The notes under the pieces: generated by a model
The model's input: only the letters and a program-made list of their open reading frames with translations
Databases searched by the model: none
What the model was told of the DNA's origin: nothing
Source: a virus
Lineage: Duplodnaviria > Caudoviricetes
DNA: 64,000 nucleotides
Direction: 5' to 3' (one strand)
Virus record (IMG/VR): IMGVR_UViG_3300037067_006336
Coordinates: 98,118 to 162,117 of that record
Shown here: piece by piece, positions 3,322 to 62,700 of the stretch
Layout: the number at the start of each line of letters is the position of its first letter
Numbering within the stretch: position 1 is the first letter of the stretch
Position numbers and translations under genes: made by a program

Positions 3322-4794
3322 ATGAAACCAGAATTACTAAGGAATTATGATAATTCCAGGGAAGATTACCGGTATGCGATCAAGGATGGTGATACTGGAA
3401 CATTCCTCAACAACGATCGAATCACAAGTACGTCACTAGTGTTCACCGGTAACTTGCAGTGGTACTACACCCTAGATGATGTTTGTTACAAGGGCAACGG
3501 GGACAAGATGAACATCTTTGATGTTTACAACCATCTGAAAGCATGTTCCAAACTACACGACGTGCTCGGCGATGACAGATGTTTAGCATTCATCATAGGT
3601 TATGAACAAGGGGATGTAAGGAACAAGATCACGGTTAACGATTTAAATTCAGTATCGACAACACTTGATGAATCATTCGATAAATCAACCATGTTGTTAG
3701 CAGTTTGTTTCGACTGGATGTGCAGGTGGTATTGCAGGACAAAGGATAACAGTACCGGGATGTTCACGTTTGGAAAGTTCTTCGAACATTCAACCAGGTT
3801 GAAATTCGATATAGATGCCATCAGTTACATAATTGAAACGTTACATGCTAACGGGTATGATCCAAAAGCATTAGAATCTTTCAATGTTAACGAGTTAATT
3901 GATATTGATGAACACGGGGAAGTGATAAATAGACCGTGGAATATAAGGTATTTTGACAAGTTACCTTCCTTGAAAGAAGAATCCGACAAGGTAAGAAACG
4001 GGGATATCATACATGTTTACATCAAGGATGACTTCTTCATTACATCAAATGATAGGTTTGTCGTTGTTAACGGTGCAAGTACCGGTTCTATGCCGGATTA
4101 TACCAGGGTATGCGTGATGGATGGTTCAGGTTACTCGTTCGACAGTAACATGTCATTAGCCAACGCTGTGCGATTGGCTAGTAACATGGATGAGCGTGAT
4201 TTCTGGATGTGGCCTGACACCGATGCCGTGAAGCTCATGACCAAACTAGTCAATGTTGGTTATTTCAACCGTTTATCCGCCACACGGTTCGAGCCAACCG
4301 TTAAGGGTGTACGATTCTGTTATGGACTGGAAGACACCAGTACTACCAACTTGAACGAGGCGGAACAGGAACAAGGTGACAAGAAGCAACACCCTTACCA
4401 CGCGTTCTTCCGCTCGAAACTACGGGGACACGGTGTAAACTCACCATCGGAACTAGATGACACGACAAAAGTCAAATTCTTCAACGAGGTAAAGAAGGGT
4501 TGGAAGAATATGAAGAAGAAAAAGGGTGATGAAGACAAGAACTTGAACGAATCATACAAGGAGTTCCCGGTGTTGAACGAGTACAACAAGATAATCGGGT
4601 TACTGCTTGATAAATACAACACACCATCATACACCAGGTTGGGTGAAAATGACAAGAAGAAATTCATGTTGGAACTAGAGCAAGGTATAGAGGCTATAGA
4701 TCGCAAGTGCAACCTCATGCAATCGGATAACAGTTTCAACCTTAACCCTGGTCAAATGTTCGACATGAACCAAACCAAATCCATAACCGATTAA
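3322..4794 (+). CDS. Putative internal head protein, paralog of 4805..6412
   Basis: Shared N-terminus MKPxLLRxY..YAIKD; C-terminal PYHxFFRxKL..SPS.L..KFFN.VKxGW module; several LNE motifs. Confidence 0.5.
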   Translation: MKPELLRNYDNSREDYRYAIKDGDTGTFLNNDRITSTSLVFTGNLQWYYTLDDVCYKGNGDKMNIFDVYNHLKACSKLHDVLGDDRCLAFIIGYEQGDVRNKITVNDLNSVSTTLDESFDKSTMLLAVCFDWMCRWYCRTKDNSTGMFTFGKFFEHSTRLKFDIDAISYIIETLHANGYDPKALESFNVNELIDIDEHGEVINRPWNIRYFDKLPSLKEESDKVRNGDIIHVYIKDDFFITSNDRFVVVNGASTGSMPDYTRVCVMDGSGYSFDSNMSLANAVRLASNMDERDFWMWPDTDAVKLMTKLVNVGYFNRLSATRFEPTVKGVRFCYGLEDTSTTNLNEAEQEQGDKKQHPYHAFFRSKLRGHGVNSPSELDDTTKVKFFNEVKKGWKNMKKKKGDEDKNLNESYKEFPVLNEYNKIIGLLLDKYNTPSYTRLGENDKKKFMLELEQGIEAIDRKCNLMQSDNSFNLNPGQMFDMNQTKSITD

Positions 4795-4804
4795 AAATTT
4801 TAAC

Positions 4805-6412
4805 ATGAAACCACTATTATTACGTCATTACAACGAGTATGACAGGGATTTTAACTACGCGATAAAAGATGTTGAAACAGGTAACTTCCTTTACGTTGAT
4901 AAGATGAACATGTTATCATTCACGCCAGCCCTGATATGGTATCCGGGGGATGGGGTTGATTCCGGTAACGGGGTTATATTGAACATCACCGAGCTTTACA
5001 ACACGTTGAAATGTTCTGAAGGTTTGCTTTCCACGCTGGGTGCTAATACATGTCTTGCATTCATAGCTACCAAGGATGGTGACGTGAAATGGAAGGTAAC
5101 CCGTAACGATTTCGATCATGTTCGTGAATCTATAGCTAAGACATTCAATAACGATGTGATGTCTGTTGCTATCTGTGTTGATGGGTTATTCAACTGGTAC
5201 TCACGTGTTGGTACGGGTAGTTCCACGGGATTCGGCTTGAAATCACTAGAGGTATACCTGAACAATCGAAATGTCAATGATGCAATAACTTACTTCATAA
5301 CGAAAAGAATAAAAGATGAAGGTTTCAACATGAATAGAACCAATAATTTCAACCAGAAGGAGGATTTAATCGATGTTGATGAGAATGGTAATTTAGATGA
5401 AAGATCCCCTGACATTAACCGGTTTAACAAGTTACCACCCTTGCACGAGTACGCCCCCACCTTGAAACGAGACATACCGTTCTCGTTGATGATGAACAAT
5501 AATATCCGAACCACCGGTAAATTCTGCGTGTTACCAGCTTCTAGTGCCGAGTTGCTTGAGGGTTTCACCAAGGTTGGTGAATTTCGTGATGGTATTTACA
5601 TGTTTGTTGAAGAGATGGCAATACCCACGATGCTGGGACTCATAAAAGGCATGGACAACCGGGATTTCTGGTTATGGGATAACACGGACGGGGTAAAATT
5701 GATGGAAAAGGCGATAGACCTGGGGTATTACCGGCAGGTGTTGGTTGCTCAATTCGAGATAACCGCGGATGGTGTTAGTGCTTACCATGAAAAGCATGAC
5801 ACGATGGTAAATTTAAACGAGGATGAAAAGGAAAACCCCTACCACTTGTTCTTCAGGAACAAACTAGAGGAATACAATATCGATTCCCCGTCCGACTTAA
5901 ACGTTGAAGACAGGGTAAAATTCTTCAATGATGTAAAGGAGGGATGGAAGGGAAAGAAGAAAAATGTCAAGTTGAACGAGTCGGCAGGTTTAACCGGTAG
6001 CATCGTGAAATACAATGACATTTTCCACGAACTACTTGACAAGTACAAGGTAGGTTCATTCACCCGCTTACCGGGGTCAAGCAGGAAGAAATTCATGGAA
6101 GAAGTGGAAAAGGGTATAGAGGAATTAGAAGGATCAGCAGACCTTAAACAACTAAACCAGACGAAGAAACAATCGATAACCAAGGTTAAACCTGAAGAAG
6201 GGAAGATGCACGAGGTACTGGGGGTAGACAAGAACAAGAAGATTTCCGATGTTTACAAGAGCGGTGCATCGCTGGCTAAAGCCTTGATAGGTAAGGTTGG
6301 AAGGGGGAAAGCCGCAGGTATGATCAACTATGCCGCCAACATATCATCAAGGGAAGACGTCTTCGACGAAGCCTCGAGATGGTTAGGTGATAATCCCCAG
6401 CAATCCAGTTAG
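4805..6412 (+). CDS. Putative internal head protein, paralog of 3322..4794
   Basis: Same motifs as the upstream paralog plus an extra C-terminal segment. Confidence 0.5.
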   Translation: MKPLLLRHYNEYDRDFNYAIKDVETGNFLYVDKMNMLSFTPALIWYPGDGVDSGNGVILNITELYNTLKCSEGLLSTLGANTCLAFIATKDGDVKWKVTRNDFDHVRESIAKTFNNDVMSVAICVDGLFNWYSRVGTGSSTGFGLKSLEVYLNNRNVNDAITYFITKRIKDEGFNMNRTNNFNQKEDLIDVDENGNLDERSPDINRFNKLPPLHEYAPTLKRDIPFSLMMNNNIRTTGKFCVLPASSAELLEGFTKVGEFRDGIYMFVEEMAIPTMLGLIKGMDNRDFWLWDNTDGVKLMEKAIDLGYYRQVLVAQFEITADGVSAYHEKHDTMVNLNEDEKENPYHLFFRNKLEEYNIDSPSDLNVEDRVKFFNDVKEGWKGKKKNVKLNESAGLTGSIVKYNDIFHELLDKYKVGSFTRLPGSSRKKFMEEVEKGIEELEGSADLKQLNQTKKQSITKVKPEEGKMHEVLGVDKNKKISDVYKSGASLAKALIGKVGRGKAAGMINYAANISSREDVFDEASRWLGDNPQQSS

Positions 6413-27552: not shown

Positions 27553-30500
27553 ATGAGAATATTACATTACGCGGACGTGCAGGTGAAGGACGAGGGTCAC
27601 GCACATCTAAGGAAACCAACGTCAACGGTATTGAGGGACATAGAGGACATCGTCCGTTCCAGGAACATCGAGTGTGTCGTCATACCAGGGGACCTGTACG
27701 AGCACTGGAAACCAACCGAGGTAGAGAGGAAGATGGTGTACAACCACCTTACCAGGTTACTATCGATCGACACCTTGAAGGAACTGGTGCTCATAGACGG
27801 GAACCACGACATACCATCTGACAGGATCAGCACGGAGGATAACAAGAACCACACAGCCCTGTCCGTGTTGAAAGACATGGTTGATTGCATGGGCACGGCA
27901 CACAAGGACAAGTTACGGTACTTCGTGAACAGCGGGGTATACCAGTCGATAACATCTCCCGAGGTCATGTTCCAGGTGTTCTCCTTGAATGACGGTACGT
28001 TCCCGGTAATGGTGGATGACCTGGAGGGTAAATCGGTGATAGGGGTTTATCATGCGATGATGCGCGAGTATGCCCTTGATAAGAAGATACCACTTAGGCA
28101 GGATGTGTTAAACTCCCTTGACACCATGGATGTTTTCCACCCTGGTTCGGTGGTAATGGCCGGTGACATACACGAGCCGTGGGAATACTCCAGTGATAAC
28201 GGTGTCATGTTCCATTACCCGGGATCAACACAACAACACACCCACAACGAGGGTAACTTCGCGGTATTCACCAACGACAAGCATGATTTCTCACCAACCC
28301 AAGCCAAGCAAGTACTGTTACACGATGTGTCAGGTGGGAAAGTATCGACATCCTCCATCAAGTTACCAGCGCGGGTATACTACCAGACGGTTGAACTAGA
28401 CAGGGAAATAACGATTGAATCCTTCAAGGATAACTTTGACATGCTATTTGACACCATCAATGTCATGTCGGAGACGTTGATGCTTGTAGTCATGAAGGTT
28501 AAATCATGTACCAGTCTACTGTCAAGAGAGATGGAGATACGGGATCATATCGTAATGAAGTTCAATGGTTCGAAGGTAAGGTTACACATTGAACCATTCG
28601 AGTACTCCAAGGTAGTTAGCGAGCAATTAGCATCTACCAATAAAGTCGTACAGGAGATAATGACCGGGAAGGATGAACATGACGACAAGGAACAACAATC
28701 CTCTGTTGATTCACTATCGCTAACCAACGAGCAGATAATAAAGTTATTCAAGTCCGTATCATGTGAGGCGGTTAAGAACTTGAAACTAGAGGATGTAAGA
28801 CAGGCTGACGTGCTAGATATACTTGACAAGACCTTCATAGAGCAGTTATCCATCACGAACACAGGTAACAAGAGGTACTCGATAGAGTTACTAGAGATAC
28901 AGACATCATCAGGTTTCATGATGCTGGCCCCCGGTAATAATATCACGCTTGACATACCAGGGTTGACAAGGATAACAGGATCGAACGGTCTAGGCAAGAC
29001 AACAATGTACAACATGCTGCGGTGGGCCATAAAGGGGGTGTTGTACGATTGGATGAAGATGAACAACATGGTGAGGAACACGGAACCCGTATTCAACAAC
29101 AAGGTCGTGGGGCATGATGTTGCGGATTGCTTGCTGAATACCAGGGTCAACGGCACGATTGTCAAGATACGGCGAGTGGCATCAAGGACATGGAAACCAT
29201 CTACCACTGACAAGCAGAAACTATCTGACAAGAGAATGAACCATGTTGCATCTATAACAAGGTCACTAACACTAGAGATTCACAAGGTGGTCGATGGGGA
29301 GACAAGGGTTAACAAGATCACGGATGATGAAGCGCAGAACTTGATCAACACGTGGTTCGGTAACGTCATCGACACCATAACCATACTCGATGCCCCCAAG
29401 CTATCAGCGTTGTTGAAGAAGGAACCAGATGATTTGAACTCCATGGTACTTGACATGGTCGGTGTGGATTACCTGGTGAAACTGGAGAATAACCTACCTG
29501 TTGTCAAGAATGAATTGATAGACATGAGTGTTCCGAAAAGGAAGAAGGATATCATAATATCGGAAAGGGACTCGATCAAGCAGGAGATATCTGATAATAA
29601 TACCAGGTTGACGGGTATACGAGATCACATCGATGAATCATTAAAATTAAAAGGGAACATCGAGGATGAATTACAATCGATCAATGGAAGGTTGATCGAT
29701 ACAGGTAACATAAAGCTCATGATAGATGACAAGGAGAAGGAAATAACGGTTATCGATACTAAAGTTGACTCGTTCGTTACTGTGGAACTCATGACACGTG
29801 ATGAAACAGTGCATCATGAACCTGTTAAGGATGTTAGTTACTTACATGAGATGGAAGCAAACCTCAAGTCCAAGAAGGCATTGATGGATAGTTTGATTGT
29901 CAAGGTTGAATCGAGTATGGTCACACTTACCAAACTAGATCATGACGTACTCGATTCCAAGTCATCATGTGTTAACAAGCTAAATAACATCATCGATAAT
30001 CTTACCATCAAGAAAGACGAATTACTATCAAGTAAGATATCATGTTTCAATACTGCTATCAATGCTTGTTTAACCATACATGACAAGTTCAAACAGAAGC
30101 AGGTTGATAACAACGAATCGATATCCTCTATCAACATGACGATATCAAACATCCGTAATGATATATCAAGACTCGAGAAGTCAATGATTGATGGTGTATG
30201 TGACAAGTGTGGTTCGATACTTGATGGTGACAAGGATACTCATGAAGCACATGTCATCAAGGTTAAATCAGACATCATGATGTTGGAACAAACATTAGGT
30301 GAATCGATATCAAACGTTACAAAGCTATCAAGTACATCTAACACCATATCATCATACGTTACAACATACTTCAATACCATATTGAGACTTAAGGATCATG
30401 ATACATCAACATTACTTGATGACATGTTAATACTTGATCGAACAGGTATGAACACAGTTATATTCATCGATGAAGTAAACAGGATTAATCATGATATCGA

Positions 30501-51778: not shown

Positions 51779-53614
51779 ATGGATAATTTAGATAATATAA
51801 GGAAATTACTTACCCCGGAAAAACAAGATTTACTGACCACGTGGGTAGATGCTTACACGGATTACTCCAACGGGGCACAATCCATGCCGGATGCCGTTTT
51901 CGATGAGGTGACGAGAGAATTACAGGCGTGTGGCATCGAGCAGGTGGTAACGTTCATCAATAACTCACTGGAGGAATTGGACGGTGATGGTAAGTTGGAA
52001 ATCAACGATAATCCCGATATGAATTCCAGGTTGATGCTATCGCTAGAGAAGATAAAGTTCCAGGATATGACACCCCGGGAAGTTGCAACCTCCATACTCA
52101 AATGGGTTGGTACCGGGAAGAAATACTACATTGGACCGAAATTCGATGGTTGTGCCATCGGGAAGAGGGACATGAAGGTTCTGACCAGGGGAGGACTCGA
52201 CCTTACTTCGGTCATTGGATCATTAATAGATAAACTACCAGGGGATGTATCCACGGGTGAACTTGTGGTGAAGAAATCAATTTTCAGAGATAACCTGTCA
52301 AAGTTCGACGGGACAGGTGAATACGAGAATACAAGAAACTTCGTTGGTTCGGTAGTGAAGAGTCACTCGGTGTTCAGGAATTATTCCCAATATTGTGACA
52401 TAGTGGGGTTGACGGATGGCAAGAACCCGTTACTGGACTCCACGTACATCGATAATGATGGCACACGGGTGAAGACATGGAACGAGTTAAATTTGGAAGA
52501 TTTAACCAGGCTGGATAAGATACACGATGGGTATCTAGCGACATGCCCGTACGATATAGATGGGATTGTTATCTCGGTATTCGAGGATGGTCCAAGGAAA
52601 GTGAAAGACAAGTACCCCCTCAACATGATAGCCGTTAAATTCAGTGGTGAAACCATAGAGACCACCATCAAGAAGTTGAACTGGGATCATACGAAGACAG
52701 GTAAATTAACACCTGTGGCCGATATTGAACCGGTGTACTACAACGGTGCAACCCTTGAGAGAGCCAACTGTTACTCGCTGGATTACGTCAGACGGATGGG
52801 TATAGGAGAGGGTTCTAGGGTACTGGTAACAAGGTCAGGCGAGATAATACCTGCTGTCGTGAAGGTGTTAACCAGGTCAACAACCATCCACCTGGACATG
52901 AAGGGTAAAGTGATCATCGGGGCACACGTGTTCGATGAATCCGTGATGAACGCGTCTAACACCCCGGAGAAGTTCACCTTGGCATTGAAATTATTACAGC
53001 TTGACGGTATAGGACCTGTCAGCTCATACATGATAGGTAACGTTGTCAACAATGATGTGATAAACCTGTTCGACATTTCCTTGAAACCACGGATCAGGGA
53101 GGTACTCGGGAATGACAAGTGGTACAAGTTCCAGGATTTCTACAACATCAAGACACTATCGCTGGACCAGGTTATAAACCTGTTGCAGTTCAACGGCGTG
53201 GCTGTAACCACGTCCAGGAAACTAGCATTATTGCTGTCAACCAAGGACAAGAAACACGAGGAAGGAATACCTGTCGATACCATCAAGAGGGTACTAACAG
53301 GGGATGGTTTCTCCAGGGTTCAAGATGCTGTAAGGAGATTGGCATCACACGGCATCAAGGTAACTAACCCGGTCGAGGTAAACGATACCACGGTAACATT
53401 CGAGATGTCAGGTGACTGGGAAGTCATGACCAAGGAAGAGTTCAAGACAAGACTGAAGCACGTGTTACCGAACGCGGTACACACCACCCTTACAAGGACA
53501 ACAACGTACCTTTTCGTTGACAGGTTAACATCGACAACCGGTAAGGCTAACAAGGCCAGGAAATACAACGTCAAGATGGTTACATACGAGGACGCGTTGA
53601 AGGGGAAATTTTGA
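51779..53614 (+). CDS. ligA: NAD-dependent DNA ligase
   Basis: MLSL, PKFDG, TRG, ENTRN, DGIV, AVKF, RSGEIIP, BRCT TGKANKARKY. Confidence 0.9.
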   Translation: MDNLDNIRKLLTPEKQDLLTTWVDAYTDYSNGAQSMPDAVFDEVTRELQACGIEQVVTFINNSLEELDGDGKLEINDNPDMNSRLMLSLEKIKFQDMTPREVATSILKWVGTGKKYYIGPKFDGCAIGKRDMKVLTRGGLDLTSVIGSLIDKLPGDVSTGELVVKKSIFRDNLSKFDGTGEYENTRNFVGSVVKSHSVFRNYSQYCDIVGLTDGKNPLLDSTYIDNDGTRVKTWNELNLEDLTRLDKIHDGYLATCPYDIDGIVISVFEDGPRKVKDKYPLNMIAVKFSGETIETTIKKLNWDHTKTGKLTPVADIEPVYYNGATLERANCYSLDYVRRMGIGEGSRVLVTRSGEIIPAVVKVLTRSTTIHLDMKGKVIIGAHVFDESVMNASNTPEKFTLALKLLQLDGIGPVSSYMIGNVVNNDVINLFDISLKPRIREVLGNDKWYKFQDFYNIKTLSLDQVINLLQFNGVAVTTSRKLALLLSTKDKKHEEGIPVDTIKRVLTGDGFSRVQDAVRRLASHGIKVTNPVEVNDTTVTFEMSGDWEVMTKEEFKTRLKHVLPNAVHTTLTRTTTYLFVDRLTSTTGKANKARKYNVKMVTYEDALKGKF

Positions 53615-53634
53615 AATTTTAAAATAATCAAGAT

Positions 53635-54030
53635 ATGACAAGGGAAGAAGCAAAAGAAGCTTATGATAAGTTGCAAGAATGCATCAAAGATGCTGGAGAA
53701 CAAGCACTCAAGTTGAAATCAATCATCGATGGTCGCGATACAGATGAAGAAACTATCAAACGTGCTGAAGAACGTTTCAAAGAACTGATCAGTGGGGTAA
53801 CTATCCAACCATACGATGGTGGCATAAAATATCACCGGGGTGATGAATGGATACTTGACCAGGATTTCAAAAAGAAAGTAGTTTGCATCAGGTATTCGTT
53901 GGTATGGGGTGTTATTGAATCGGAATTTGGTTTTAATGATAATAATATCAGAGAGTTAACCACTACTTGGGTGAATAAACACCTCGGTTGCGAGGGGTTC
54001 ACAACATATTGTCAATTTGCCACTTTTTAA
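53635..54030 (+). CDS. Array-associated small protein, copy 1; C-terminus encoded by repeat 1 and spacer 1
   Basis: Ends ..WVNKHLGCEGFTT-YCQFATF*; WVNKHLGCEGFTT spans the repeat. Confidence 0.8.
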   Translation: MTREEAKEAYDKLQECIKDAGEQALKLKSIIDGRDTDEETIKRAEERFKELISGVTIQPYDGGIKYHRGDEWILDQDFKKKVVCIRYSLVWGVIESEFGFNDNNIRELTTTWVNKHLGCEGFTTYCQFATF

Positions 54031-54268
54031 ACTCGGTGAATAAACACCTCGGTTGCGAGGGGTTCACAACAACAGCATTCGATGTAACTAGTAACACGTT
54101 GGTGAATAAACACCTCGGTTGCAATGGTTTTACAACCGAGACTATTGAGACCTTGTAACATCAAAGGGTGAATAAGCACATCGGTTGCGAGGGGTTCACA
54201 ACGTGTATGATAATACCCATTATAATCCCCCGGGTGAATAAACACCTCAGTTGCTAGGGGGTCACAAC
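53970..54268. CRISPR. CRISPR-like array 1: five 36-nt repeats, four spacers (29, 30, 30, 30 nt)
   Basis: GGTGAATAAACACCTCGGTTGCGAGGGGTTCACAAC at 53970, 54035, 54101, 54167 and 54233; last three carry substitutions. Confidence 0.9.
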
Positions 54269-54451
54269 TCAGTTCTTTAGCTTGTGTATAACGGACAGGT
54301 GTATGAGCCGTGTCTGATCAGAATTAACAAATTGTAACGGCTTCTAATTAGCATTGCTTATACGCCATGTTAGCAATCTTTAAAAATTATGGAAATTGAA
54401 AAAACATTTATCGTTGAAGGGGAAATTTTGAAATTTTAAAATAATCAAGAT

Positions 54452-54859
54452 ATGACAAGGGAAGAAGCAAAAGAAGCTTATGATAAGTTGCAAGAATGCA
54501 TCAAAGATGCCGGAGAACAAGCACTCAAGTTGAAATCAATCATCGATGATTCCAGGAATAACGAGGAAGAAACTATCAAACGTGCCGAGGAACGTTTCAA
54601 GGAACTGATCAGAGGGTTAACTATCCAACCATACGATGGTGGCATAAATTATTACCAGGATGATGAATGGGTACTTGGTCAGGATTTTAAAAACAAGGTA
54701 GTTTGGATAAGGTATTCGTTAATATGGTCAGTTTTTGAATCGGAATTTGGTTTTAAATATGATAATATCGGAAAGTTAACCACTACCTGGGTGAATAAAC
54801 ACCTCGGTTGCGAGGGGTTCACAACGGTGAAGTGGTTTGGCAATCGTTCTATATGGTGA
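54452..54859 (+). CDS. Array-associated small protein, copy 2
   Basis: Paralog of 53635..54030; ends ..WVNKHLGCEGFTT-VKWFGNRSIW*. Confidence 0.8.
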   Translation: MTREEAKEAYDKLQECIKDAGEQALKLKSIIDDSRNNEEETIKRAEERFKELIRGLTIQPYDGGINYYQDDEWVLGQDFKNKVVWIRYSLIWSVFESEFGFKYDNIGKLTTTWVNKHLGCEGFTTVKWFGNRSIW

Positions 54860-55152
54860 ATAAACACCTCGGTTGCGAGGGGTTCACAACGCTGATCGAC
54901 AACAAGAGTATCAAGGACATGGTGAATAAACACCTCGGTTGCGAGGGGTTCACAACCGAATTTGGCGCCGAGCTGAATGCTTATAGGTGAATAAACACCT
55001 CGGTTGCGAGGGGTTCACAACCGCCAAGGGGTTACCCGTCAACGGGAAATGATGAATAAGCACATCGGTTGCGGGGGGTTCACAACACGTGATAGACCCT
55101 GACAAACTATGGAGGGGATGAATAAACACTTCGGTTGCGAGGGGTTCACAAC
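54790..55152. CRISPR. CRISPR-like array 2: six 36-nt repeats, five spacers (29, 30, 29, 29, 30 nt)
   Basis: Repeats at 54790, 54855, 54921, 54986, 55051 and 55117; spacer 54891-54920 matches 62529-62558. Confidence 0.92.
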
Positions 55153-55192: not shown

Positions 55193-55567
55193 ATGAAAAC
55201 AATACGTTATAAACAAGGGAAGTTAAAGGTACTTGCTATCAAATTATGGTTGGCAACTTACGGGGTAAACGCGTATGGTAAGTACAGGTTAGAACTACGT
55301 GCGGGTGACACGGGGTTAATGTTATGCATCTACCAATCCAGGCGGAAACCGTTATTCAGGAACCTTTACGTGTTGTCCGTGTTGTTCTTCCCGTTGGTGT
55401 CACTGTTGGTGTTATTCAAGATAGTAGGCATCATCATTTCACATTACGTTAACGGTGCCGTTAACTTCTACAAGGATTCCGCGTGGGTTGAAGGAATAAG
55501 GTTCTTCAACTGGATAAACATAATTTTAATGTTTATTCTAGGGGTATTATTAATTTTTAAATGGTAA
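55193..55567 (+). CDS. Membrane protein
   Basis: Hydrophobic helices. Confidence 0.5.
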   Translation: MKTIRYKQGKLKVLAIKLWLATYGVNAYGKYRLELRAGDTGLMLCIYQSRRKPLFRNLYVLSVLFFPLVSLLVLFKIVGIIISHYVNGAVNFYKDSAWVEGIRFFNWINIILMFILGVLLIFKW

Positions 55568-55572
55568 GTTCC

Positions 55573-56007
55573 ATGAATAAATTTCTTTACCACGTTACCA
55601 TGGAAAATAACATGACCGGTATCCTGGCTAATGGTTTACTGGTTAACTCGGGTATGAGAAGCCCGTTCACCCGTTTCAGCAAAGATAAGATCATAAGTTC
55701 ATATTATGAAAAATACGGGATGCAACCATTATTCCTTACGAATGATGTGGAACATACTATTAAACAGTTAGGTAAAAATTCAACCCGGTCTTGCATGGTT
55801 TTAAAAATTGATGTGACCGGTTTAAATATGGAAGGAGAATTCGATTACCTTGAAGAAAAATGGTATATGTTTTACAAAAACAGGGAATCGATGATTGATA
55901 ATATGAGGGGAAGAAGAGGTATCACGTTCATTTCCAAGGAAAATATAAAACCATCGTTAATGGTCTTTTGTCCAGAAATAACGACTATCATTAACAATAG
56001 ATATTGA
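55573..56007 (+). CDS. Putative ADP-ribosyltransferase/Tpt1-fold protein
   Basis: LYHVT..N..GILANGL, LFLT, VLKID. Confidence 0.4.
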   Translation: MNKFLYHVTMENNMTGILANGLLVNSGMRSPFTRFSKDKIISSYYEKYGMQPLFLTNDVEHTIKQLGKNSTRSCMVLKIDVTGLNMEGEFDYLEEKWYMFYKNRESMIDNMRGRRGITFISKENIKPSLMVFCPEITTIINNRY

Positions 56008-62418: not shown

Positions 62419-62700
62419 ATGGGAAACACCAGCAACATCACTACGGTAGACACGATGAAGGTAAACTGGAACAAGTTAACACTGGGCGAGTTCATGAAGG
62501 TGGAATCGGAATACCAGTTATCTGGTAAGCTGATCGATAACAAGAGTATCAAGGACATGATAATAGTGGAGATATTCGGGAACAAGTACCAGGTAACAAG
62601 TACCATTTACAACAGGATCAAAGCTTGCAAGAACAATGATACCAGGTTGAAGATGATGAATGATGTAACCATAACACATTCCCCGCTGGAGGAACTTTAA
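62419..62700 (+). CDS. Hypothetical protein containing the protospacer for array 2 spacer 2
   Basis: ORF 29 nt after CAGGATAT at 62390; match at 62529-62558. Confidence 0.7.
   Translation: MGNTSNITTVDTMKVNWNKLTLGEFMKVESEYQLSGKLIDNKSIKDMIIVEIFGNKYQVTSTIYNRIKACKNNDTRLKMMNDVTITHSPLEEL

Follow-up and report, generated by a model that had tools for sequence, protein, structure and literature searches.

A phage protein family whose coding sequence ends in the first repeat of cas-less CRISPR-like arrays

Virus-borne CRISPR arrays which carry no cas genes and are aimed at sibling viruses have been documented in the Sulfolobus portogloboviruses SPV1 and SPV2 (Medvedeva et al. 2019, PMC6858448). Phage-borne repeat mimics, namely RNA anti-CRISPRs (Racrs) and solitary repeat units, have been surveyed by a search which masks confident open reading frames (ORFs) before looking for repeats, so that gene-embedded units are missed by design, and which includes no type VI examples (PMC10651486); a recent preprint on phage CRISPR-like regulatory RNAs makes no mention of Cas13, type VI or Bacteroidota. 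On the host side, II-C and VI-B systems of Bacteroidota share one Cas1-Cas2 machinery. Flavobacterium VI-B arrays, which like those of II-C feature 36-bp repeats and have the leader-distal end in common with them, have no adaptation genes and receive their spacers through II-C Cas1/2 acting in trans (PMC8092290). A repeat preceded by non-invader RNA is known to sequester Cas13b, raising plaquing about 1000-fold (PMC13187072). As to Cas13b inhibitors, the literature searched names one protein, and the main survey of RNA inhibitors contains none. In this work, we describe two tandem modules, each composed of one small ORF and one CRISPR-like array, found in the final 64 kb (64,000 nucleotides, nt; positions 98,118 to 162,117; hereafter, the window) of the 162,117-bp IMG/VR virus contig IMGVR_UViG_3300037067_006336 (Duplodnaviria; Caudoviricetes), whose completeness is estimated by CheckV at 73%. 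In both modules the gene is read straight into the array, its last 12 codons being the first repeat, and the same fusion recurs throughout the family of phage proteins to which the gene belongs.

The two modules span window positions 53595-55152 and are organized as follows (lengths of proteins in amino acids, aa).

53595..53634, plus strand: start of module A and left edge of the duplication: the final 20 nt of a ligase gene, then a conserved upstream segment in which a promoter-like site lies
53635..54030, plus strand: ORF-A, 131 aa, from a phage protein family without annotation, as judged by substitution rates, family profile and fold
53970..54268, plus strand: array 1, five 36-nt repeats (starting at 53970, 54035, 54101, 54167 and 54233) and four spacers
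54006-54034, 54071-54100, 54137-54166 and 54203-54232, plus strand: array 1 spacers A1, A2, A3 and A4
54269..54411, no strand assigned: array 1 trailer and inter-module stretch, non-coding; the part covered by the related contig L014 (see below) aligns without visible difference
54412..54451, plus strand: start of module B, in which the ligase 3' fragment and the conserved upstream segment recur as copies
54452..54859, plus strand: ORF-B, 135 aa, second copy of the family gene (139.8 bits against the family profile)
54790..55152, plus strand: array 2, six 36-nt repeats (starting at 54790, 54855, 54921, 54986, 55051 and 55117) and five spacers
54826-54854, 54891-54920, 54957-54985, 55022-55050 and 55087-55116, plus strand: array 2 spacers B1, B2, B3, B4 and B5

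The 11 direct repeats of 36 nt, separated by spacers of 29-30 nt at a period of 65-66 nt, have the regularity of CRISPR arrays. Repeat 1 is read by both ORFs in its sole stop-free frame: the last 20 codons of ORF-A fall within repeat 1 and spacer A1, the ORF ending inside this spacer, while ORF-B proceeds through repeat 1 and spacer B1 up to a stop at the start of repeat 2. In either array the repeats next to the gene are identical and the distal ones degenerate, and arrays 1 and 2 have no spacer in common. No non-coding AT-rich leader is present, the sequence 5' of repeat 1 being coding. This layout had been proposed in the initial annotation of the locus, made from the sequence alone: two tandem ORFs of about 130 aa running into arrays of 36-nt repeats and 29-30-nt spacers, with differing tails beyond repeat 1, perfect ORF-near and degenerate distal repeats, no shared spacer and no leader. 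All of it was confirmed, every element lying where it had been placed.

The duplicated units start at 53595 and 54412, with an offset of 817 nt at first and of 820 nt past a 3-nt in-frame indel. The gene upstream encodes an NAD-dependent DNA ligase, and the duplication starts in its final 20 nt: since the duplicated unit begins inside the ligase 3' end, the duplication arose within the phage. A promoter scan locates sigma-70-like sites at 53597-53625 and 54414-54442, within the starts of modules A and B respectively, a consensus of limited value for a presumed Bacteroidota host; the upstream segment of module A is unvaried in module B and in L014. The latter is a 676-bp ENA contig (sample ERZ27247358) from a close relative, holding array 1's last part, its trailer and module B; its ORF is frameshifted after about 50 codons, its array has decayed to two degenerate repeats, and a different sequence follows downstream. 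Over the first 137 nt of each module (53595-53731 and 54412-54548), comprising the upstream segment and 31 codons, the two copies differ at one position only, and positions 165-301 of L014 are nearly unchanged, while the remainder of the gene is about 12% diverged. The near-invariance of the module start points to gene conversion or else to nucleotide-level constraint, for instance from a promoter or an RNA element.

The two ORFs are not chance frames, as indicated by their pattern of substitution. Nonsynonymous substitutions between ORF-A and ORF-B occur at 0.42-0.46 times the synonymous rate, while the two shifted frames give ratios of 1.0-1.5; differences at codon positions 1, 2 and 3 amount to 13, 6 and 20, respectively, and the sole indel is in frame. 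An exhaustive profile search gathered a family of 246 representatives at E <= 0.001, most of them 95-160 aa long and only 20-35% identical to one another; ORF-A scores 126 bits against the family profile. Most family alignments extend through the profile positions encoded by repeat 1. When modeled by AlphaFold from a 96-sequence alignment, ORF-A gives a predicted local distance difference test (pLDDT) score of 91.7, for a predicted fold in which two helices at the N-terminus are followed by a four-stranded sheet and by a further two helices at the C-terminus. Residues 112-124, encoded by the repeat, score about 94-95 and lie at the end of the last helix: according to this model and to the family alignments, they are a conserved, folded part of the protein. 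An earlier model, built from two sequences, was discarded as too poor for use (pLDDT 58).

Neither ORF-A nor ORF-B is matched in scans of Pfam, PHROG and PADLOC, and Pfam searches over 96 family members returned nothing consistent, the family having no Pfam model. Similarly, no relative of known structure was found by a sequence profile search of PDB with the family, or by a Foldseek search of PDB with the good model at E <= 0.001. The best match of a wide fold search with VIA-align, RecX at Z 5.5, falls under the noise guidance of the tool itself; the weak structural matches are mostly small helical nucleic-acid-binding domains. In the ESM Atlas only viral hypothetical clusters were retrieved, the three nearest being 96-100% viral. 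The family is absent from cultured phage genomes, in which a search with the family protein and the array spacers gave nothing beyond one chance match, and its profile has no match in 121 genomes of the bacterial family including Riemerella and Chryseobacterium, a result which speaks neither for nor against a link with AcrVIB1. An Rfam scan of the region produced noise only.

The initial annotation had suggested asking whether homologues end in repeat-spacer arrays, and this architecture is indeed a trait of the whole protein family. Homologues, about 30% identical, share a C-terminal motif, V-E-E-H-F-K-L-K-G-V-T-P, followed by unrelated tails. The motif recurs at a period of 22 residues, up to five or six times, in at least 36 of 149 representatives. 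This count is a minimum, as arrays whose first spacer contains a stop codon go unseen at the protein level. At the DNA level, arrays starting from the last 12 codons of the gene were found in L143, L146, L148, L149, L168-L172 and L181-L184, with a unit of 36 nt in constant codon register, spacers of about 30 nt and a period of 63-70 nt, mostly 65-66; this layout is present in ten lineages examined at the DNA level. In three further members (L144, L145 and L147) the homologous 36 nt are present once, as ordinary coding sequence, indicating that the repeat is the native 3' end of the gene, from which arrays grew repeatedly. An origin of the repeat from the 3' end of the gene had been put forward in the initial annotation as an alternative: given the three single-copy members and the conserved, confidently folded end of the helix, it is now the better-supported origin.

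Tandem modules are found also in a second, unrelated jumbo phage (L148, positions 4155-5061 of a 212-kb IMG/VR contig of 29% GC content), where one module has degenerate repeats and the other four perfect repeats and a degenerate fifth. Two long proteins, P0158 (760 aa, from a 148.5-kb JGI contig) and P0044 (588 aa), contain 4-5 matches each to the family profile; P0158 is a long open frame spanning at least two tandem modules plus arrays.

Arrays of the family grow at the gene end. Mismatches to the first unit climb with distance from the gene (0,0,1,3,4; 0,0,1,1,1; 0,0,2 and 0,1,1 in four family arrays), and the same gradient is seen in the two arrays of the window. Within one cluster of proteins at 90% identity, lengths vary among members because the arrays differ: at the DNA level L168-L170 hold four spacers and L172 two. 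These sibling phages, which come from different samples, have in common the trailer-end spacer and the degenerate last repeat, and differ in the gene-proximal spacers. A single event is captured by the proteins P0098 and L145, near-identical save for a 22-residue insertion in the former, corresponding to one repeat and one spacer, with the native tail kept. Taken together, shared trailer ends, mismatch gradients and the P0098 insertion indicate a polarized growth at the gene end, every gain of a spacer rewriting the protein tail, as the initial annotation had anticipated. In this respect, the arrays behave like CRISPR arrays. From a single unit, to one spacer, to a multi-spacer array, the family thus provides a natural, register-exact series of array birth.

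The origin of the spacers was searched by comparing all nine of them with the whole contig. Six match at 0-4 mismatches (A1 and B4 with none; A2, A3 and B2 with one; B5 with four), against 7-12 mismatches for shuffled spacers, a level at which the three unmatched spacers also lie. The matched sequences are located as follows.

62529..62558 of the window, plus strand: protospacer of B2, within the plus-strand ORF 62419-62700, one synonymous mismatch
1821-1849, 3406-3435, 27607-27636, 65268-65296 and 67881-67910 of the contig: the protospacers lying outside the window

Two thirds of the spacers therefore match phage DNA, namely that of their own contig, over which the protospacers are scattered (1.8, 3.4, 27.6, 65.3, 67.9 and 160.6 kb). 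Six out of nine is about the figure expected from a 73% complete contig, were all nine spacers self-derived, and by these matches the spacers of the window phage appear to come mostly from its own lineage. The single mismatches of A2, A3 and B2 are each a synonymous third-position C/T change; two of those in B5 are synonymous and two conservative. In plus-strand reading, each mismatched spacer has the same sense as the gene it matches, these four being a gene of 472 aa, the end of one of 220 aa, an ORF of 93 aa and a baseplate-like gene of 240 aa; A1 and B4, which match perfectly, run antisense to the local genes. With six spacers, this association between mismatch and orientation is non-significant (p about 0.07). 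The nearest homologue of a spacer-target gene is 44% identical, too distant to be informative about sibling strains. Two further regularities may be due to chance: the fourth base 3' of the protospacer, in plus spacer orientation, is A in all six cases, a weak hint of a protospacer-adjacent motif (PAM), and the three single mismatches all fall at spacer positions 10-13. The PAM of Flavobacterium columnare is not seen at the six protospacers.

As for the machinery, the absence of cas genes, initially noted for the 64 kb of the window, holds for the whole 162-kb contig: a six-frame profile search detects no Cas13b, Cas9 or Cas1, and none of the large ORFs contains a Cas domain above the curated cut-offs of Pfam and PADLOC. 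Cas13b is likewise absent from five other carrier contigs, including a complete 51-kb phage genome. The tail sheath is closest to those of jumbo phages of Tenacibaculum, Chryseobacterium, Flavobacterium and Prevotella and of phage PAU, and its cultured relatives are mostly from jumbo phages of Bacteroidota. No cultured phage is near by DNA, the ligase used as a synteny anchor in IMG/VR yields no close relative, and a conserved 27-mer of the module is not found in viral and metagenome collections. No conserved partner gene is seen beside the modules, neighbors varying among loci. The family gene lies among candidate counter-defense or takeover genes, which are two DNA methyltransferases, a NUDIX gene, a phage-encoded SmpB and DUF192 in the L168 lineage, and NUDIX and nicotinamide phosphoribosyltransferase (NAMPT) genes in L144. 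In the window, a 148-aa ORF at 55561-56007, two genes downstream of array 2, has a sub-threshold match (E 0.006) to Tox-ART-HYD1, an ADP-ribosyltransferase toxin domain.

The class of the repeat was evaluated by comparison with bacterial arrays. Many loci came up in a search for arrays resembling those of the window in 3' end and period: the closest repeats are found in Bacteroidota genomes all holding Cas13b, which in three cases directly adjoins the array, and a larger class of repeats, with a different interior, adjoins Cas9. Two covariance models were used, R1, built on nine VI-B repeats from arrays whose genomes hold Cas13b, and R2, a Bacteroidota II-C model. The units of several family members are matched by R1 over their full length, at the exact 36-nt boundaries set by the codon register (L143, 24.1 bits; L184, 23.1, 21.6 and 21.0; L145, 21.9; L168/L172, 18; L149, 17.5; L181, 11-13); the best scores, of 21-24 bits, led by 24.1, 23.1 and 21.9, have E values of 5e-4 to 6e-3, the others being weak. 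R2 matches neither the family units nor the repeats of the window; a II-C assignment finds no support either in the contig, which holds no Cas9, though no search for a trans-activating CRISPR RNA was made. In size, 36-nt repeats and 30-nt spacers correspond to the defining values of VI-B (10.1101/092577), and the window unit carries the terminal motif shared by II-C and VI-B on the side away from the gene. Among members, the family units differ largely at synonymous sites. Beside one VI-B-type array (L113; contig 16 of G001, 2528100-2530640) lies a 1739-aa open frame with weak, piecewise matches to Cas13b models, which may be a divergent or fused Cas13b.

The simplest account of the 36/30 geometry, the polarized growth, the single insertion and the missing cas genes is that host Cas1-Cas2 uses the terminal 36 bp of the gene as a repeat. 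We consider it moderately probable that the unit mimics a repeat from within the gene, that adaptation enzymes of the host extend it, and that a host effector, most likely Cas13b, makes use of the resulting array, with guides drawn from the lineage of the phage itself. The last 36 bp of the family gene would then have a dual role, as the end of the final helix and as a CRISPR repeat of the Bacteroidota 36-bp/30-bp class to which II-C and VI-B belong. During infection, host adaptation enzymes would treat the unit as an integration site, each event duplicating the 36 bp and inserting a 30-bp spacer beside the gene; a cas-less array would grow outward, with the protein tail beyond the unit rewritten every time. 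The array RNA would load the host effector, where self-lineage guides would fit a use against sibling phages in the same cell, while a lone unit, or guides that do no harm, would act as a decoy titrating Cas13b. The phage could gain from sibling-directed guides, as in archaeal viruses (PMC6858448), from a Cas13b decoy (PMC13187072) or from an antisense block of host pre-crRNA, the precursor of CRISPR RNA (crRNA).

Several observations weigh against this explanation. R1 does not detect the repeats of the window phage on either strand, and the window repeat is therefore not a canonical VI-B repeat: on the plus strand it ends in GGUG...CAAC, with a loop which is not U-rich, in place of the GUUG/CAAC ends and U-rich loop of VI-B. 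An identification of the plus-strand repeat as a Cas13b repeat accordingly fails for the window phage. All R1 matches to family units are, moreover, antisense to the gene. Genuine VI-B arrays have their variant repeats at the 3' end in guide orientation, that is, they grow at the 5' end, and in II-C arrays the guide sense is directed toward the growing end (see also PMC13187072 and PMC8092290). The antisense likeness and the polarity of growth together imply a geometry inverted with respect to canonical VI-B and resembling II-C; as far as can be judged from sequence, the phage arrays combine a VI-B-like unit with a II-C-like geometry. Hairpin strength of the repeat is not conserved across the family, and on the minus strand each repeat of the window scans as terminator-like. 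Over minus-strand positions 53982-55023, hairpins with T-rich tails resembling intrinsic terminators are found at each repeat, nine sites against 1.5 expected from shuffles.

Further difficulties come from the spacers and from the search for a host. Two spacers match the phage's own genome perfectly, which implies that self-targeting is avoided only with antisense-strand guides. If guides are antisense, it is the four mismatched spacers that could base-pair with mRNAs of the phage itself, and A1 and B4 would be harmless, an outcome coincident with the self-avoidance pattern reported for archaeal virus mini-arrays (PMC6858448). Speaking against guides from that strand are the terminator-like repeats found on it and, on the plus strand, the promoter-like site ahead of each ORF. 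In addition, none of nine spacers from three other carrier phages, one of them the complete 51-kb genome, matches its own contig, and in one carrier contig, 81% complete, none of seven spacers is self-derived; the absence of self-matches in other carriers makes self-matching a particular feature of the window phage. Finally, no bacterial array with a matching repeat came to light: scans of genome, metagenome and viral collections for exact 20-mers of the repeat were empty, and a BLAST search of 400 Bacteroidota genomes with two arrays turned up scattered short matches no better than noise.

Other explanations account for part of the same data. The arrays could be a by-product: the 3' end of the gene happens to resemble a host repeat, Cas1-Cas2 mis-integrates there, and the resulting arrays are of no use to the phage, to which only the protein matters. 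Off-target integration spawning arrays is documented in E. coli (Nivala et al. 2018, as cited in 10.1101/148544), and the unit does evolve under protein constraint, its variation being largely synonymous; three lineages have no array, ORF and array have decayed together in L014, and self-derived spacers are what accidental capture in an infected cell is expected to leave. We nevertheless regard this as doubtful, as no less than a quarter of the family, whose members share only 20-35% identity, has arrays in constant register, and these last long enough for siblings from different samples to share trailer spacers. Moreover, the whole module is tandemly duplicated in two unrelated jumbo phages, VI-B likeness is found in several lineages despite the low protein identity, and the 81% complete carrier contig lacks the self-derived spacers that accidental capture would predict. 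Alternatively, the main role might be that of an anti-CRISPR, the repeat mimics in the transcript loading Cas13b with harmless guides as a decoy or, through their antisense relation to the VI-B repeat, pairing with the repeats of host pre-crRNA and so blocking its processing, possibly with the protein as a co-inhibitor. Judging from the sequence, the plus-strand mRNA is certain to run into the units; solitary units exist in the family, which is found among candidate counter-defense genes (NUDIX, NAMPT, methyltransferases), and four of the six self-matching spacers, being same-sense when read on the plus strand, would be harmless. Precedents exist, since overexpression of extraneous crRNA raises plaquing about 1000-fold and a leader RNA paired with the repeat blocks processing by Cas13b (PMC13187072), and repeat-mimicking RNA anti-CRISPRs are widespread, often beside anti-CRISPR protein genes (PMC10651486). 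This role is possible, though we incline against it: the window repeat does not score as VI-B, the 20-mer scans and the 400 Bacteroidota genomes provided no matching host repeat with which to compare the mimicry, plus-strand guides from the two perfect spacers would target the phage's own mRNAs, and a decoy leaves the accumulation of sibling-like spacers unexplained.

A purpose-built unit, offering its repeat to host adaptation for the production of guides or decoys and co-expressed with a protein which handles the array RNA or host Cas13b, appears unlikely to us; at its extreme, the protein would be the RNA-binding core of a guide system independent of Cas. A further proposal is that of an autonomous new system, in which the small protein would act on the array RNA, by binding or processing, and make up, together with some phage partner, a Cas-independent RNA-guided system capable of installing its own spacers. 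An undescribed RNA-guided system with the small protein as partner of the array had been the favorite of the initial annotation, and some features are in its favor: throughout the family the repeat is physically part of the protein's gene, no known fold is convincingly related, with weak matches leaning to nucleic-acid binding, and about 27% of the genome is unassembled. We hold it to be very improbable. No effector candidate was found; a protein of 100-130 aa without catalytic signature is an unlikely integrase or nuclease; neighbors differ among loci, with no conserved partner gene, and the complete 51-kb carrier genome has no Cas13b. Geometry (36/30), polarity and repeat likeness, in turn, match known host machinery (PMC8092290) and point to host CRISPR enzymes. 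Lastly, a captured or mis-assembled host array carrying anti-phage spacers would be expected to contain phage-matching spacers, and leaderless phage mini-arrays have been suggested to recombine with arrays of the host (PMC6858448, discussion). Such an origin is hardly credible here, a unit embedded in the gene across the whole family being in practice its refutation. Repeat 1 belongs to the native coding sequence of a phage family and is single-copy in relatives; the 3' end of the phage ligase forms part of what was duplicated; the passage from array 1 via the trailer to module B reappears in an assembly made independently from another sample; and the same architecture is present in many unrelated assemblies.

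Gene-embedded repeat mimics extended by host enzymes, if such they are, share features with several described systems, and coincide with none of them. Like the SPV1 and SPV2 mini-arrays, the arrays of the window lie in a virus genome without cas genes, their spacers turn over among close relatives, and host enzymes are presumed to serve them. In the archaeal viruses spacers match close relatives while the corresponding sites of the carrier are mutated; here, this applies to four of the six self-matching spacers, while the other two match the carrier perfectly. SPV1 and SPV2 arrays are, however, intergenic, feature host-like non-coding leaders and contain 1-2 spacers, whereas in the window a conserved gene provides the first repeat with its last 12 codons, a non-coding leader is missing and up to five spacers are present. 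Host and class also differ, archaeal type I/III in one case and probably Bacteroidota II-C/VI-B in the other. Were the spacers used against siblings, their self-lineage origin would make them the bacterial-virus counterpart of CRISPR-mediated competition between sibling viruses in archaea.

Racrs and solitary repeat units (Camara-Wilpert et al. 2023, PMC10651486) are, similarly, phage-borne repeat mimics without cas genes. Family members with a single unit resemble solitary repeat units, and candidate counter-defense genes are found nearby, as with Racrs. These are, however, small non-coding RNAs with their own promoters, while the family unit lies in a coding gene under purifying selection, and is thus not a non-coding stand-alone RNA; on the basis of sequence, a functional likeness, as a decoy, is possible. 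By analogy, an mRNA ending in the unit would reproduce the configuration by which Cas13b is sequestered, a repeat preceded by non-invader sequence: in bacteria sequestration is prevented by the leader folding onto the first repeat, and the phage would here exploit that very configuration (PMC13187072). A phage countermeasure, or a hijack, aimed at Cas13b might in this way be represented.

The VI-B arrays of Flavobacterium columnare, served by II-C Cas1/Cas2 (Hoikkala et al. 2021, PMC8092290; Smargon et al., 10.1101/092577), share with the arrays of the window 36-nt repeats, 30-nt spacers, the lack of adaptation genes and the terminal motif at the repeat end distal to growth; several family units, moreover, score with the VI-B model, some of them weakly. 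In contrast, no cas13b is present here, the likeness is antisense to gene and growth, the window repeat fails the model and coding sequence takes the place of the leader. Neo-CRISPR loci (Nivala et al. 2018), as presented in 10.1101/148544, where they are cited, resemble the family arrays in being born outside the canonical locus, when a repeat-like sequence is duplicated and a spacer inserted. According to that account they arise in E. coli, upon over-expression of Cas1-Cas2, at scattered sites; within the family, the events are recurrent and register-exact, at one conserved phage gene and in many lineages, a pattern suggestive of selection and not of accident. With the register-exact series of array birth, array origin and the sequence needs of II-C/VI-B adaptation become directly testable.

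Overall, the modules look like an undescribed way for phages to plug into the CRISPR machinery of their hosts, and they define a class of phage-borne CRISPR elements overlooked by current pipelines. The literature searched contains no conserved protein-coding gene whose last codons are a repeat and from which arrays grow out across phage lineages. Off-target array birth is already known, and so are cas-less viral arrays and solitary repeats, which have been described as non-coding elements; what is new is a conserved coding gene which supplies the repeat.

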